Source: a virus
DNA: 64,000 bases
Virus record (IMG/VR): IMGVR_UViG_3300025411_000008
Coordinates: 67,917 to 131,916 of that record
Strand: one strand, 5' to 3'
Shown here: positions 42,320-59,848 of the stretch, one piece after another
Numbering within the stretch: the first letter of the stretch is position 1
Layout of the letters: each line of letters opens with the position of its first letter
Notes under the pieces: model-generated
What the model was told of the DNA's origin: nothing
The model's database searches: none
The model's input: the letters and a program-made list of their open reading frames with translations, nothing else
Position numbers and translations under genes: made by a program

Positions 42320-42392
42320 TGCCGAAATCATCACGTCGGGAGATGTTGTGGTCGTCGTAGGGTGATGCCTACGGCCTGATGATGGCAGTCAG
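42320..42392 (+). ncRNA. type II hammerhead ribozyme HH1
   Basis: TGCC-GAAA-[stem III]-GTC|-[stem I GTCGTAGG/CCTACGGC, loop GTGATG]-CTGATGA-T-GGCA; predicted cut after 42353. Confidence 0.88.
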
Positions 42393-42394
42393 CT

Positions 42395-43130: not shown

Positions 43131-43135
43131 CAAAC

Positions 43136-43196
43136 GCCGAATCCCCGAAAGGGGAAGTGCTGGGGTGATGCCCAGTGCCTGATGATGGCAGTCACC
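43136..43196 (+). ncRNA. type II hammerhead ribozyme HH2 (U15.1-A16.1 variant)
   Basis: GCC-GAA-T-CCCC-GAAA-GGGG-A-A|-GTGCTGGG-GTGATG-CCCAGTGC-CTGATGA-T-GGC-AGTCACC; predicted cut after 43156. Confidence 0.8.
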
Positions 43197-43224
43197 ACCA
43201 CAACTAGTAAGGAAAAAGATAACA

Positions 43225-43535: not shown

Positions 43536-43605
43536 TCTGCTGTAGCTCAGTGGTAGAGCAGCGAACGTATGTTCGTAGTCGTGGGTTCGATTCCCACCAG
43601 CAGTA
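43536..43605 (+). ncRNA. tRNA-like element with non-canonical anticodon loop
   Basis: Canonical D and T arms, 6-bp acceptor stem plus a U1/U72 mismatch; anticodon arm GCGAAC-GTAT-GTTCGT has no 7-nt loop. Confidence 0.75.
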
Positions 43606-44997: not shown

Positions 44998-45002
44998 ACA
45001 AC

Positions 45003-45062
45003 GCCGAATCGCCGGGAGGCGACGTCCTAGAGTGATGTCTAGGGCCTGACGATGGCAGTCAG
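45003..45062 (+). ncRNA. type II hammerhead ribozyme HH3 (U15.1-A16.1 variant)
   Basis: GCC-GAA-T-CGCC-GGGA-GGCG-A-C|-GTCCTAGA-GTGATG-TCTAGGGC-CTGACGA-T-GGC; predicted cut after 45023. Confidence 0.8.
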
Positions 45063-45088
45063 TTTACAACCTAACTAGGAGAATCACT

Positions 45089-49371: not shown

Positions 49372-49442
49372 TCTGCAGTAGCTCAATGGCAGAGCACTAC
49401 ACCCATGGTGTAGGGGTGGAGGTTCGATCCCTCCCTGCAGTA
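49372..49442 (+). ncRNA. tRNA-Met(CAT)-like element, probably non-decoding
   Basis: Cloverleaf with a U1/U72 mismatch; anticodon loop CC-CAT-GG lacks U33 and can close to a 3-nt loop. Confidence 0.72.
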
Positions 49443-49507
49443 CGGTAACACACCACCCCGGTGTGTACCCGGTGTCACCAAGCACCGTAACTAGAAGGAA
49501 ACCTATT

Positions 49508-50254
49508 ATGAGCGAAGCTTTTTACGAAGGCATTCCCGTCCCCCAGTGCTTCATTGACCTGGAGGATGTCATCGCTGCAGGTGTGAAGAAGGTCATCTTG
49601 TACGGCCCCCCCGGGACCGGCAAGACCTACTCAGCTCTCACGCTCGGTGTCACTGACACTGGGTCTGAGCGCCTCATCTGCTCCGAGGACATGACGACTG
49701 GTGACATCGTGGGTGCTATGTTGCCCACGCCCACCGGCGGCTTTGGATACGTCGAAGGCGCTTTGGTTCGCGCATGGAAGTCCGGTGCTCGTGCAGTTAT
49801 TGACGAGATCAACCGTGCTTCCGGTGACGTTGAGTCAACGCTGATGGCGTTCCTTGACAGTGCGGAGTCTGCGGTCTGGAAGAACCCTTACACTGACGAA
49901 GTAATTCGTCCGTCTGAGAACTTCTCGGCCATCATGACCACCAACTTCGAGGACCCGAACATGATCGCTGCTCCACTGCGTGACCGTTTCCCGGTTGCAA
50001 TCAAGATCGACGCTGCCCACCCGGCTGCGTTGGTTGCTGCATTGCCACCAGAGTTGCGCATGCTTGCCGCTGCTATTGTAGCAGGTAAGCCTGGAGAGCG
50101 TGCGTCGCTGCGTGCTTGGAAGGAGTTCCAGACTCTTCGTCAGAGTCCGGCATTCACTACCGAGCGCGCTGCCAAGCTTATCTTCGGTAAGCTTGCTGAC
50201 GAGATCATCAACGTGATCCAGCTCGGCTCGTTGAGCACGACGGCTTCACTGTAA
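49508..50254 (+). CDS. MoxR/CbbQ/CobS-like AAA+ ATPase
   Basis: Walker A GPPGTGKT, Walker B VIDEINRA, TTN sensor, LRDRF arginine finger, SLR. Confidence 0.88.
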   Translation: MSEAFYEGIPVPQCFIDLEDVIAAGVKKVILYGPPGTGKTYSALTLGVTDTGSERLICSEDMTTGDIVGAMLPTPTGGFGYVEGALVRAWKSGARAVIDEINRASGDVESTLMAFLDSAESAVWKNPYTDEVIRPSENFSAIMTTNFEDPNMIAAPLRDRFPVAIKIDAAHPAALVAALPPELRMLAAAIVAGKPGERASLRAWKEFQTLRQSPAFTTERAAKLIFGKLADEIINVIQLGSLSTTASL

Positions 50255-51744
50255 TGAGTGAAGACTTCGTTATCGACGGTGACCCGGTAAAGCCGCTAGT
50301 CGGTGCCATCACCTCATTCCGTGACGATGTCACGGACCCGATCGACTGGGATGTACAACAGACGGTCGGTGAGTATGGCGCAGGCGTAGACTTCGCTGCT
50401 GGTGTACTGGCTGTTCCCCTCTCGGGGGACAGCTGGTCCCAGCAGTTGAAGATGCGCACGCTTATCGAAGCTCGCATCTCTCCTCTTGACGACGGTGTGT
50501 ACGAGGCTATGGCTAAGGCATACGCTCGGGACGGTATCACTGACGCCGTGCTGCGTGTGGCTGAGCAAGCCCGTGTCAATGCTGTCGCTAAGCCATTCTT
50601 GGAAGCTCGGGGCGTTGATGTTAACGACATCCAGGGCAACGAGAAGAAGCGTGGTGTCATGCTTGCTACCGGCAAGACCATGGCTCACTGGGACGAGGCA
50701 GTTGCTTTCACTGCTCAGCATCACGGTACCAAATCGTTTGACTCGTTTGCGAGCGGCGTTCGGTCTGTGAACCCTGAGTGGTCTGAGCGACTGCGCAAGC
50801 TCGCTAAGCGTCTCGACAAGACGTTCACTGGCACACCCGATCGACTCGGTGACACGAGGCCGTATCACTATACGGATGACGTCACTGGTCCTTACGGGTT
50901 CAATCACACTGTCCGTGCTGCTCAGGAAATTGCTGAGTATGCATCGGGCGGTATGAAAGCGCCAGAGACAGTCAAGCGCGAGCGCGAGGCACGTGAGGAC
51001 AAGCGTGCTGAAGAGTACGGGGACGAGAAGCCTGACGAGAAGGGTAGGTTGTCACCAGACGATTCTCCTCTCGAGGACGAGTTGCCTGACGACTTCGAGT
51101 TTCCCACAGATGAACGTGGGCAATTCGCTGCGTTGAGCATCGACGAGTCATTAGTTCTCTCCGTTGAGGTTGAGGGTTACATGAAGCGTCGACGCAAGCC
51201 AGCGCAGTTCGGTCGTAGCATTGGCAACATTGCTCGTCTGTACACTGACCCGGAGCGCCGTATCTTCACCCACAAGGTGAAGGTCAAGGGTGGCATCGTA
51301 GTCATTGACATCTCAGGTTCCATGAGCTTGAGTCAGTCTGACATCGAGTCCATCGTTGAGGCAGCACCTGCTGCTGTCATCATGGCGTACAGCCACAGCG
51401 TACACGAAGAGCACAATGCTTGGGTGTTTGCACGCCGTGGCTGGCGTGTAGCTGACATTCCACGTGTCGGTGGTGCTGGCAACGGTGTCGACGGTCCTGC
51501 TCTTACGTGGGCTATCCAGCAGCGTGCTCCAGGTGAGGACATCATCTGGGTATGTGACGGGTATGTCACCAGCAAGAACGACGGTCAGTCCGACGCTCTA
51601 ACCCTTCAGTGCGCACAGCTTGTCAAGAAGCACCGGATCATCATGATCGAGAGTGTTGAAGACGCAGTCAAGCAGTTCAAATCAGGTAAGTTTATCAACA
51701 AGCCTGCTGGTCCTGTTCGTCAAGCGTTGCTTGGCAAGCTCTAG
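50254..51744 (+). CDS. VWA (MIDAS) domain protein, partner of the AAA ATPase
   Basis: VVIDISGSMS MIDAS and WVCDG; translationally coupled to the AAA gene. Confidence 0.8.
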   Translation: MSEDFVIDGDPVKPLVGAITSFRDDVTDPIDWDVQQTVGEYGAGVDFAAGVLAVPLSGDSWSQQLKMRTLIEARISPLDDGVYEAMAKAYARDGITDAVLRVAEQARVNAVAKPFLEARGVDVNDIQGNEKKRGVMLATGKTMAHWDEAVAFTAQHHGTKSFDSFASGVRSVNPEWSERLRKLAKRLDKTFTGTPDRLGDTRPYHYTDDVTGPYGFNHTVRAAQEIAEYASGGMKAPETVKREREAREDKRAEEYGDEKPDEKGRLSPDDSPLEDELPDDFEFPTDERGQFAALSIDESLVLSVEVEGYMKRRRKPAQFGRSIGNIARLYTDPERRIFTHKVKVKGGIVVIDISGSMSLSQSDIESIVEAAPAAVIMAYSHSVHEEHNAWVFARRGWRVADIPRVGGAGNGVDGPALTWAIQQRAPGEDIIWVCDGYVTSKNDGQSDALTLQCAQLVKKHRIIMIESVEDAVKQFKSGKFINKPAGPVRQALLGKL

Positions 51745-51883
51745 CCACGAGTTCCTTGAGTAACTAATCACTCAAACAACTCGGGTGTATCCTTTCGGGT
51801 ACACCTGAGTACCATGTTACATCACACAACGTGATGTACAGTGTGCCCACCGAGGCACTGTCTAAGCAATAAGGAGTACCACT

Positions 51884-52243
51884 ATGGAAGAGTTCAATCT
51901 CGACTTGACCCTTGACGAGGCAGCGGAGGCACGTATTGCTCACGCTGAGTTCCTCACTGGCATCAAGGACTGGGCGTTGCGACTGGGTGAGCTGATTCAG
52001 CCTTACACCCACATCGCCAACATCCTGCTCCAGGACGAAGTCTCGGAGTCTGACGTTGAGAAGTTGTCGATCGTGTTCCCGCTGGGCCTTCGGCTCACCA
52101 TTGAGCACATCAACAACTTCTATGATGTCATCCAGACTGAGGCCAAGAAAGTCTTGGGTTCACCATTTGCACTGCACGAGGAGCACTCGCCGCACTGCGA
52201 TGGCACCCGTGATGCTTGCGGCCACCAGGAACACTGGGCTTAA
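51884..52243 (+). CDS. hypothetical protein
   Basis: 119 aa, AAGGAG RBS. Confidence 0.7.
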   Translation: MEEFNLDLTLDEAAEARIAHAEFLTGIKDWALRLGELIQPYTHIANILLQDEVSESDVEKLSIVFPLGLRLTIEHINNFYDVIQTEAKKVLGSPFALHEEHSPHCDGTRDACGHQEHWA

Positions 52244-52252
52244 GGAGAGAAG

Positions 52253-52558
52253 ATGATCAAGACTGAAGTTCAAGAGCATGCTGAAGGTCTGCGGTCCCGT
52301 ATCAATGAGGCCACAGACCTTGACTCGCTCAAGGAATACAGCCTCAAGATCGTAGACCTTCTCACCAAGATTGACCAGTTGGTTGGTCTTGGTGAGGAGC
52401 GTTGGGTCTTGGCTGACTGTAAGTTAGAAGCTGTAACTACGGTCGCCAATGGTCTCATTGAGCTGCTTGAAGCCATTGAGGAATCGTCTACGATTCTAAA
52501 CAATGTCTCTTCTTACAGCGCAGCTATCGCAGCTGCTCGAGACATCATCGAGGCCTAG
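52253..52558 (+). CDS. hypothetical protein
   Basis: 101 aa, AAGGAG RBS. Confidence 0.7.
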   Translation: MIKTEVQEHAEGLRSRINEATDLDSLKEYSLKIVDLLTKIDQLVGLGEERWVLADCKLEAVTTVANGLIELLEAIEESSTILNNVSSYSAAIAAARDIIEA

Positions 52559-52559
52559 T

Positions 52560-53766
52560 TGTAACCTCCCTCGGCTAATTGGGGGAGCCTTAGCTCTTGC
52601 GAACTAACTCCACGCATTTACACACACAGTGTGTATTTGACGTGGGGTTGGTTGGCAGACGATGTGGAGGGTTATCGTTAAAACCCTAGCCTGGGCTATG
52701 CCGTTGAGGAGGAGATGGCGGTTGCATACTATGGCTTGTCCTGGAAAAGATATGGAAGCTGGTAGATGGTTAAACTATCTATAAAGCCCTCAGCATAAGG
52801 GGAAGCTTATGTAGGAAAATCAAGGCGCCTTAAAGGCCTATCGCAGAGGAGCGGAGAATCCATACTTGTTGGTAGATAGACATAGGAACCATCGTGCAAG
52901 CGAGCGCGTGTACAGGTGAAGACGCTCAAGCCTATGCATGCTTCGTTGTGTGCATAGGCCCTGTTGTGTTTACAGTGACCAGAGATGCAGGCGTGCAGTT
53001 TTATACGCAACGCACAGGAGTCGAGTTAAACACAATCTCAGCATGAGGGGAAGCTCATGTAGGAGCGGAGGCTCTCCTTAAACCTGCACACTTAAATCCC
53101 GGCCACCGATGTAAAACGTGGTAGCTGCGCTAGCTTAACTGGCGATCCCGTACATGCTTCATTGTGTGTACGGGAGCAACTCACGGCGAGTATACCAGAC
53201 CCAGCTGGCAACCTGTAAAGGCCATCTCACCATACGGGGAAGCGTATGGAGGCAATCAGAAGCCTACTTAATAGACGGGAAGCTACTGCCAGAGTGTAGC
53301 CGGTGCAATCCGTTAGCTTGCTAATACTTCCTAGTTGGTATGATACAAAGGAACTAGGGTGGTCCTGGGTATGACCACTGGAAAACTGCCCTCTTTCTCT
53401 TCAACCACGATGCACCGGCATATGAGCCTTATGAGATCGTTGGTTGATAGACTCGGCATGAGGAGCAACTCATGTAGGTTGGCCTACTACCTGTGTGTTA
53501 CACGAGTGTATGGCGTCCTGGGTATGACGATAAACTGCCTCCTTTCTTGTGTTCACATGGACAGCATATGCGCGATGAGATGCGAACACGGACTCAACAT
53601 AAGGAGCAGCTTATGTAGGAAGTGGTAGATGCCTACTTAAAAAATACACGTTACCCAGAACGATACTTTGGTAGCTTCTTAGTTGGTAGTTGGAACTATG
53701 GTGCTAGTAAGCGCGAGTACTGGTGAAGACGCTTAACACCTGGGCATGTGTATAAAAGGCCTACTA
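52560..53766 (+). ncRNA. putative large modular ncRNA (~1.2 kb)
   Basis: No credible ORF in an otherwise gene-dense region; five classes of repeated hairpin/pseudoknot modules with compensatory changes and G-U pairs on the + strand. Confidence 0.72.
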
Positions 53767-53900
53767 GGGTGTGTAGTTTAAGCTGGAAAAACCCTTAGTA
53801 GCTGTGACATCCAACTATCTAAATATAGAAAATTGTTGGTTAGCACTCAGAACTTACGTCACGGTTAAAGGGAATGGTGGTTCGAACCCACCCACACCCA
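53767..53900 (+). ncRNA. tRNA-like element with ~60-nt expansion of the anticodon arm
   Basis: Acceptor GGGTGTG/CACACCC-A, D stem GTTT/AAAC, T arm GGTGG-TTCGAAC-CCACC, extended stem TAGCTGTGAC/GTCACGGTTA. Confidence 0.8.
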
Positions 53901-53929
53901 CGCAGTACCAAACCAACTAGTAAGGAGAT

Positions 53930-54163
53930 ATGATGGAAATCAAGGTAGAACAGCAGGGACCTGAGCTTCGTATGCAAGTCATCTTTGATGAGCCTGCGCA
54001 GTCGGAAGTCTTTCGTGAAGAGTTCGAATCAATGATGGAGCGCATCGCCAAGCGTCTTGACGCAGTGGTACTCGGTGCAGAAACCGATGGTTCAATCTCT
54101 AAGGAAGAGATCCGTAAGCAGTTTGCAGAGACTGTTAACAAGTTCGTTAGCAAGGAGGAGTAA
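53930..54163 (+). CDS. hypothetical protein
   Basis: 77 aa, AAGGAG RBS. Confidence 0.7.
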   Translation: MMEIKVEQQGPELRMQVIFDEPAQSEVFREEFESMMERIAKRLDAVVLGAETDGSISKEEIRKQFAETVNKFVSKEE

Positions 54164-54579
54164 TGATTGCACGTGAACTAAGGTGGTCTCGCAGGAATGA
54201 CGATGATGATATCATCTGGACTGCGAAGACTTATCCTAATCACGGGTATTGGCATCACAACGTAGACCTGTCTTTTACTTTGGAGTCAGGTAGGCGTTAT
54301 GCCATCACCAACCGCAATGCTGTCCTCACTGTGCGTAAGCGCGAAGAGGGCAAGAAGGTTGCCACAAAGGTTCTGTTACAGAAAGAGTTTGATAATTCTT
54401 ATGTTGCTAAGAACCTGATTGACTCACTTCTGTATTCAGCTCGTATGTTGTACGAGAAGTTACCACACATGGCAGAACAGTGGTTCTTAGAGCAGCTGAC
54501 TAACATGCCTGATGCTGATGAACCAGAGCAACCCGATGTTCATACTAAGGTTCATTACCCAAGAGGGTATCCCTGCTGA
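54163..54579 (+). CDS. hypothetical protein
   Basis: 138 aa, TAATG coupling. Confidence 0.7.
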   Translation: MIARELRWSRRNDDDDIIWTAKTYPNHGYWHHNVDLSFTLESGRRYAITNRNAVLTVRKREEGKKVATKVLLQKEFDNSYVAKNLIDSLLYSARMLYEKLPHMAEQWFLEQLTNMPDADEPEQPDVHTKVHYPRGYPC

Positions 54580-59377: not shown

Positions 59378-59496
59378 GGAACTAACTCCTCGCATTTACA
59401 CACATAGTCTATACGATCAAACAAAGGAGGCAGTACCGAGTAAGCTAATATAAACCATGATGCAGTAAAATCTAGTTGAAGAAAAAAAGGCCTAGC

Positions 59497-59763: not shown

Positions 59764-59773
59764 TAAAGTTAGC

Positions 59774-59848
59774 GCCGAAACCCCCGCTTTCTACGGGGGG
59801 TCTATGAAGGGGTTGTTTCCTTCATACCGATGATGGTAGACTATAACT
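59774..59848 (+). ncRNA. type II hammerhead-like ribozyme HH4 (U4C core variant)
   Basis: GCC-GAAA-CCCCC..GGGGG-TC|-TATGAAGG-loop-CCTTCATA-CCGATGA-T-GGT; loop GGTTGT can pair with downstream ATAACT; predicted cut after 59802. Confidence 0.7.

Follow-up and report, generated by a model that had tools for sequence, protein, structure and literature searches.

What is a short structured sequence, here called module A, doing five times over in a gap of a phage genome that is poor in open reading frames (ORFs)? The gap lies in IMG/VR virus record IMGVR_UViG_3300025411_000008, which totals 131,916 b and is estimated to be 89% complete. We analyzed 64,000 nucleotides (nt) of this record, positions 67,917 to 131,916, referred to below as the window, and coordinates are those of the window unless another source is named. 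A 1.37-kb stretch between plus-strand genes, without convincing ORFs, houses the array formed by the five copies. The original prediction, made from the letters alone, described a compact pseudoknot followed by a hairpin with a variable loop, and proposed a protein-binding or processing handle, a decoy for a defense nuclease, or a handle that delimits individual small RNAs. The module has two helices, folds on one strand, occupies a fixed locus in a limited set of phages, and marks the borders of the sequence blocks that these phages have in common.

Five copies of a two-hairpin RNA element

The gap and the copies within it are as follows; pair probabilities are those of hairpin 1 in a fold of the whole gap.

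52559-53929, plus strand: ORF-poor gap; a leader with a 26-nt motif, then five units, ending right before the ribosome-binding site (RBS) of the gene at 53930
52789-52834, plus strand: copy 1; CTCA at 52789-52792, hairpin 1 at 52793-52812 (GCATAAG/CTTATGT, loop GGGAAG), pair probability 0.93-0.99
52813-52815 with 52828-52830, plus strand: copy 1 hairpin 2 (AGG/CCT), 12-nt loop, TAAA tail
53037-53082, plus strand: copy 2; CTCA, hairpin 1 at 53041-53060 (GCATGAG/CTCATGT, loop GGGAAG), pair probability 0.92-0.98
53061-53065 with 53074-53078, plus strand: copy 2 hairpin 2 (AGGAG/CTCCT), TAAA tail
53226-53271, plus strand: copy 3; CTCA, hairpin 1 at 53230-53249 (CCATACG/CGTATGG, loop GGGAAG), pair probability 0.98-0.99
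53250-53253 with 53262-53265, plus strand: copy 3 hairpin 2 (AGGC/GCCT), loop AATCAGAA, ACTTAA tail
53452-53487, plus strand: copy 4; CTCG, hairpin 1 at 53456-53475 (GCATGAG/CTCATGT, loop GAGCAA), pair probability 0.97-1.0
53476-53478 with 53483-53485, plus strand: copy 4 hairpin 2 (AGG/CCT), loop TTGG, no TTAA tail
53593-53640, plus strand: copy 5; CTCA, hairpin 1 at 53597-53616 (ACATAAG/CTTATGT, loop GAGCAG)
53617-53619 with 53632-53634, plus strand: copy 5 hairpin 2 (AGG/CCT), 12-nt loop, ACTTAA tail

The cores start with their CTC at 52789, 53037, 53226, 53452, and 53593 and end at 52815, 53063, 53252, 53478, and 53619. Start-to-start distances are 248, 189, 226, and 141 nt, the irregular spacing of 141 to 248 nt first reported for them, and the copies have only 27 to 46 nt in common, the remainder of each unit being different. 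With as many as 3 mismatches allowed, a degenerate 22-nt pattern matched five times in the 64 kb against 0.35 matches expected, and none of 100 shuffles reached five, which excludes chance and upholds the five copies at the places originally given. A covariance model, the search recommended with the original prediction, returned exactly these five copies across the whole 131,916-b record and recovered the module in related phages. Copy 4, the lowest-scoring match to model R2 (21.1 bits), is also the one copy without the T(T)AA tail said to follow the other four. In copy 3, metagenome contigs carry C>T variants at two stem positions, 53230 and 53253, each replacing a C:G pair by U:G.

Both hairpins are, on the evidence of covariation, real RNA structures. 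The stem of hairpin 1 has 7 base pairs (bp) in 33 of 37 copies, the remaining 4 carrying one bulge, and closes a loop of fixed length, 6 nt, that is purine rich (G-R-G-M-A-R). Hairpin 2 abuts it with a linker of 0 nt and has a stem of 3 to 6 bp. The covarying stem first noticed is thus borne out, except that it is 7 bp long and not 6, as the base beside CAT that had been written as part of NN always pairs with the K after ATG (GU, CG, UG, AU). In an ungapped MAFFT seed of 18 copies, pairing of the seven-pair stem was complete (100%), and 4 of its pairs had compensatory changes; the observed value was not equaled in any shuffle, and controls slid along the alignment were 17 to 56% paired. The larger count used 14 sources and 37 copies, 36 of them distinct, aligned to the two-hairpin model. 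Loci L043 and L049, whose hits and scores are identical to those of L042 and L048, were omitted from it, as was L038, which has no DNA 3' of the gene. Among the 36 distinct copies, pairing stood at 100% in hairpin 1, with compensatory changes at each of the 7 pairs, and at 97.8% in hairpin 2, with such changes at 3 of 4 pairs (stems include AGG:CCT, CGG:CCG, AGGC:GCCT, AGGT:ACCT, AGGA:TCCT, and GAGA:TCTC), in an alignment that was fitted to the model and is hence biased towards structure. None of 500 shuffles reached the observed score, and slid controls were 23 to 52% paired. The result for hairpin 1 is independent of the model fit, the ungapped seed being in agreement.

Of the 36 distinct copies, 21 close hairpin 1 with G:U or U:G, which on the opposite strand would be a C-A mismatch, so that only the plus strand folds and the module is a plus-strand RNA. 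The CTC, the loop bases G-x-G-x-A, and the C:G and A:U pairs at the base of the stem are invariant or nearly so in all 18 seed copies. Invariant unpaired bases together with invariant pairs inside a covarying stem argue for read-out by both sequence and shape. The loops of hairpin 2 differ within a genome, as had been observed, but do not vary freely: they fall into subtypes that are conserved between genomes (for example AAYCNGAR, a GUGGAUG type, and an ACGKAGGCU type), each linked to its own downstream body.

The H-type pseudoknot that was proposed between the 5' CUC and the loop is likely but, in terms of covariation, unproven. The CUC is compatible with the first three loop bases (G-R-G) in 100% of the 36 distinct copies (C:G in 36 of 36; U:G in 30, U:A in 4, and C:G in 2 at the middle position; C:G in 36 of 36); two of the three pairs are invariant, the third changes on one side only, and none changes on both. 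A pattern scan of viral and metagenome contigs with the pseudoknot positions freed found no additional true members. The connecting spans, 1 nt (A) across the 7-bp stem and 3 nt (A rich) across the 3-bp stem in 33 of 37 copies, are of lengths that suffice for H-type geometry, and the pairing appears sterically well suited.

Carrier phages and the shuffling of units

The record encodes a WhiB-type regulator and a portal protein 39 to 40% identical to the portals of 154- to 161-kb Mycobacterium phages such as Tonenili, and the stretch occurs in 24 sequencing runs, all of them metagenomes, with no RNA run among them, and 22 of them labeled freshwater. We read the source as a freshwater actinophage. 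A pattern scan of viral contigs found the module, with compensatory stems, in 12 more loci, and 80 syntenic loci were retrieved by way of a 496-residue protein encoded upstream of the array, which contains a vWA domain. Of 35 model matches in these 80 loci, 34 fell within 14 loci in which this protein is at least 42% identical. A fifteenth locus at or above that identity, L038, has no DNA downstream of the gene, and the remaining 65, more distant loci gave no model match at an E value below 0.5. Two further copies came from metagenome contig L116, the only new locus in a scan of metagenome contigs. The pattern scan with freed pseudoknot positions returned L116 again, as a true relative, and 10 new viral-contig loci, which were judged chance hits by their sequence context and weak scores in model R1, without a check of ORFs. 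A blastn search of a phage database in distant mode yielded no match, nor did a tblastn search of phages with the 496-residue protein.

Copy number ranges from 1 to 6 per locus in 14 of the 15 related loci and the metagenome contig. In each of five whole records searched, all matches with an E value of 1e-4 or less cluster at one place, and all 37 copies lie on the plus strand, which is that of the flanking genes. The gene order is constant and on one strand: an AAA_5 ATPase, a protein of about 495 residues with a metal ion-dependent adhesion site (MIDAS), 1 or 2 small ORFs, the array, and small ORFs. The carriers are a small clade of freshwater actinophages, in which the array sits within a run of plus-strand genes.

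Within this fixed locus the array itself is a mosaic. A BLAST comparison of the array with eight relatives gave 25 homology blocks of at least 45 nt, and of the 50 ends of these blocks, 15 fall no more than 3 nt from the edge of a core, against an expected 5%, in a count that includes non-independent alignments. Contigs from four further freshwater runs, placed on the stretch, have 16 joints, and 10 of these have an end that coincides with the edge of a core, as in 53063 to 53226, 52777 to 53037, and the backward joint from 53583 to 52789. Hairpin 2 moves with the downstream block and the flank that ends in ACGGACUCA with the upstream block, and hairpin 1 is the hinge between blocks. Since the blocks begin or end at module edges, the module is both the constant head and the junction of shuffled units, which agrees with the earlier suggestion of a handle delimiting individual small RNAs. 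Unit order and number vary between relatives, and this tolerance of gain, loss, and reordering speaks for autonomous units under a common head and not for one rigid fold.

Neighboring elements and genes

Several other elements share the gap with module A. A same-strand motif of 26 to 30 nt, AACTAACTCC-N-CGCATTTACACACA, occurs twice in the record (52598-52630 and 59379-59408; 96% identity), each time following a stop codon, and heads the array in relatives L010, L016, L033, and L039; it may serve as the array's promoter or leader. A second recurrent element (53362-53402, 53515-53549, and 53736-53760) has a short covarying stem (GTC/GAC, CAC/GTG, GGTG/CACC) with the loop CTGGGYAT, followed by AAACTGCC and a pyrimidine run; its loop GGG is able to pair with a downstream GCC, and in relatives its last copy lies 20 to 40 nt before the RBS of the first gene. 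The run at 53538-53547, which we take to resemble the anti-Shine-Dalgarno tail, pairs with the loop region of copy 5 in the fold, and the window shows no enrichment of such runs, with 9 matches found and 6.2 expected. Long hairpins at 52930-52959 and 53147-53175 have a conserved loop, TGCTTCRTTGTG, that recurs in relatives, and their stems differ yet pair (GCCTATGCA/TGCATAGGC and CCCGTACA/TGTACGGG). A hairpin resembling a T arm, GGTGG-TTCGAAC-CCACC, stands at the 3' end of the gap (53876-53892).

Outside the gap, the following features belong to the same region.

42320-42394, 43135-43197, 45002-45064, and 59773-59845, plus strand: type II hammerhead matches between genes, 27.9 to 36.7 bits against a gathering threshold of 37
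49372-49443: transfer RNA (tRNA) just upstream of the AAA_5 gene, anticodon CAT according to ARAGORN
49463-51744: AAA_5 (MoxR-type) ATPase, then the 496-residue protein, a pair kept in 81 of 81 retrieved loci

In relative L036 (positions 26-87 of that locus), a type II hammerhead exceeds the cutoff with 40 bits. A tRNA stands at the same place in L036, L037, L040, and L047, its upstream position being confirmed in four records checked. The ARAGORN anticodons differ (CAT here, ATT in L036, TCA in L037, where the tRNA is called SeC, and ATA in L047), and the tRNA of L040 is an Rfam tRNA match only. A further tRNA, at 43536 in the window, has an unreadable anticodon.

The 496-residue protein has an all-helical N-terminal half without a known fold and a C-terminal vWA domain with the MIDAS motif DISGSMS in the alignment consensus. 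Its AlphaFold model (mean predicted local distance difference test score, 85.2) gave weak hits to vWA domains, the best with an E value of 0.017 and none at 0.001 or below. The idea of a counterpart to Ro60 and Y RNA was dropped in view of the weak structural vWA hits and of a record with no TROVE gene. Small proteins p119, p138, and p261 are present in 12 of 16 module-bearing loci and in none of 65 others, a distribution that merely mirrors relatedness.

What the module may do

Known families offer no ready answer. An Rfam cmscan of 51500-54500 at E values up to 10 returned one unrelated match, inside an ORF on the other strand, and none at the modules; the loci of six relatives, scanned at E values up to 0.5, had no family at the modules; a scan of the window at gathering thresholds contained no large-RNA family. 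Rfam 15 has no such family, and we found no published account of such an array.

We tentatively favor, at somewhat less than an even chance, a recognition or processing handle on which one factor docks per unit. As a plus-strand RNA element, module A combines an invariant single-stranded (A)CUCA, a 7-bp hairpin, and an abutting second hairpin, and the three-pair CUC:GRG pseudoknot would render this head a compact knot. It is the constant head of each unit of about 140 to 310 nt in a tandem array of separately folded RNA units, and would be a docking site specific in sequence and shape, onto which a phage or host protein may be loaded once per unit. That factor could cleave a long precursor where two units meet, or it could bring the same partner to unit bodies that differ. 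The four near-threshold hammerheads and two tRNAs in the same gene run make the cutting of long transcripts plausible; unlike the hammerheads and tRNA-like elements, which are scattered over the plus-strand run, the module is confined to one locus.

Like CRISPR repeats with their Cas6-type handles, and like the solitary repeat units that phages carry as RNA anti-CRISPRs, module A is a constant hairpin separating variable cargo in variable copy number. The cargo, however, is 100 to 250 nt of conserved folded RNA in place of 30- to 40-nt spacers, the spacing is irregular, no CRISPR-repeat family matches at the modules, and the canonical form has no host copy in 185,579 species' genomes. Guide-like complementarity of the segments between modules, an earlier suggestion, was no better than in shuffles within the phage's own genome: the best antisense match there was 15 nt (E value, 0.14), whereas 20 shuffles reached an E value of 0.009 with a median of 0.56. 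The coat-protein operators of RNA phages, hairpins of about 7 bp with a fixed loop read by one protein, occur once per genome at a start codon. Module A differs from them in its five copies within noncoding RNA, its extra 5' CUCA, and its stacked second hairpin.

A bolder form of the handle reading, which we regard as decidedly speculative and improbable, is an RNA operon in which an early transcript would be cut at, or by, the constant pseudoknotted head, acting as a new small ribozyme or as the site of an unknown nuclease. Different folded small RNAs bearing the same handle would result, giving one effector several specificities. Hairpin-2 loop subtypes and unit bodies would supply these specificities, in a CRISPR-like logic without spacers.

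Several points weigh against a docking or processing handle. In the whole-gap fold, hairpin 1 of copy 5 has a probability of 0.01, and 53601-53609 pairs with 53535-53544 instead; the hairpin does form in a 60-nt fold. The structural bias of the 37-copy alignment and the non-independence of the border counts have been mentioned, and the common 27-nt core is likely a site of homologous recombination, so that a block border there does not have to be the end of an RNA. Transcription, RNA ends, a protein partner, and processing are all things that we infer. No candidate partner was found among the neighboring small proteins, which have no Pfam or PHROG family (among them those of ORFs 53930-54163 and 54163-54579, downstream of the array), and genes for TROVE, RtcB, RNase III, and CCA enzyme were not found in the 89%-complete record.

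In a different architecture, the whole gap would be one large folded RNA and module A a recurring tertiary block, a docking loop or knot, with no protein involved and no RNA ends marked. The loop region of copy 5, which pairs 60 nt upstream with another module's tail, would be in keeping with it, as would the further conserved, covarying hairpins in the segments between modules and the long-range helices of the whole-gap fold. GOLLD and ROOL are described as large, ornate noncoding RNAs of phages and prophages that lie beside tRNAs and have a tRNA-like part inside (PMC6582537; 10.1101/2024.12.08.627333), and to that extent they resemble the present locus, large and noncoding in a tRNA-carrying phage, with a tRNA-like part at one end. 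They differ in that no Rfam large-RNA family matches here and that tandem units, 1 to 6 in number, have been shuffled in place of one fixed fold. Variation of unit number and order among close relatives, with borders at the module, is hard to fit to one global fold, and no complementary partner of the GGGAAG loop recurs once per unit. We consider this architecture unlikely.

Several irregularly spaced copies with a conserved loop, varying in number between relatives and located among plus-strand phage genes, might also be expected of a decoy or sponge that soaks up a host RNA-binding factor or a defense nuclease, a reading to which we give little credence. The canonical 27-nt module, the only form covered by the scan of 185,579 species' genomes (one genome each), had a single match, in a protein-coding stretch of an Acidobacteria metagenome-assembled genome, which was judged chance; no host original for mimicry was thus found. 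Two known systems had been invoked for this role, and neither was supported. Type III antitoxin (ToxI) arrays and the pseudo-ToxI arrays of phages are similar in their serial small, possibly pseudoknotted units, their phage setting, and the idea that each repeat binds one protein and that cuts fall between repeats. ToxI-type units run head to tail and are about 34 to 45 nt long. Here there is no head-to-tail tandem repeat, the constant part being about 45 nt of each 141- to 248-nt unit and the rest differing, no toxin gene adjoins the array, and there is no Rfam match. ToxN (PF13958) was not found in the record, a blank that is weak alone because its control matched nowhere. The CsrB and RsmZ sponges likewise contain short hairpins that recur at uneven intervals, vary in copy number, and present a conserved loop rich in purines; in those sponges GGA keeps one place within the loop. 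The loops of module A (GGGAAG, GAGCAA, GAGCAG, GAGAAG) share no fixed GGA, which GAGCAA and GAGCAG lack altogether, and the RNA between sites is conserved and structured. CsrA (PF02599) was not found in the record, and an actinobacterial control genome was also negative; Actinobacteria are not known to have CsrA.

The module might instead be a small self-cleaving ribozyme of a new kind, dividing the array into its units much as the hammerheads may act between genes. Its compact conserved core of about 45 nt, with an invariant unpaired CUCA, the loop G-x-G-x-A, and a possible pseudoknot, its location at unit borders, and the four near-threshold hammerheads in the same plus-strand run would suit such a role, but the conserved unpaired core is very small, no feature points to a cleavage site, and conservation of this kind is equally expected of a protein site. 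No model of a known self-cleaving ribozyme matches at the modules, at E values up to 10, the Hammerhead_II matches lying elsewhere; we hold a new ribozyme to be very improbable.

More improbable again is a mimic or relic of a translation start, either a start-stop site or a ribosome decoy, in which a Shine-Dalgarno-like loop is followed 5 to 6 nt on by ATG and then, in 4 of the 5 window copies, by TAG. Copies 1, 2, 4, and 5 do have AAGGAG or AAGGGG in stem and loop, then ATG and TAG, and the purine run of copy 5 pairs with an upstream pyrimidine run. Across the copies, however, ATG is replaced by ATA, GCA, GTG, or AGG with a compensating change in the 5' strand, the base after it is T or G as set by its pairing partner, and the peptides from ATGG forms are not conserved. 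A coding reading of the modules was rejected, as the ATG is not conserved.

A DNA-level element (a palindromic protein site, promoter, or recombination site) is barely credible. At the DNA level hairpin 1 does form an almost perfect inverted repeat, and a recombination site would fit with block borders falling at the module. But the half-sites change jointly with pairing kept, for which a dimer site has no need, 21 of 36 copies have a G:T-type closing pair by which the palindrome is broken on the opposite strand, 37 of 37 copies are on the plus strand, and a scan for sigma-70-type promoters was empty at the modules.

Some of the most abundant bacteria of lakes are hosts to freshwater actinophages, whose RNA biology is almost unknown. 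This study adds a two-hairpin model with pair counts from 36 copies, pair counts for the pseudoknot, and border statistics. The module they describe has strong covariation support, belongs to no curated RNA family, and is the organizing element of a locus that is reshuffled unit by unit. A self-cleaving module would represent a new ribozyme class. Should it instead be a handle for processing or loading, it would represent a new phage route to a family of small RNAs from one transcript, and a compact, portable RNA tag.

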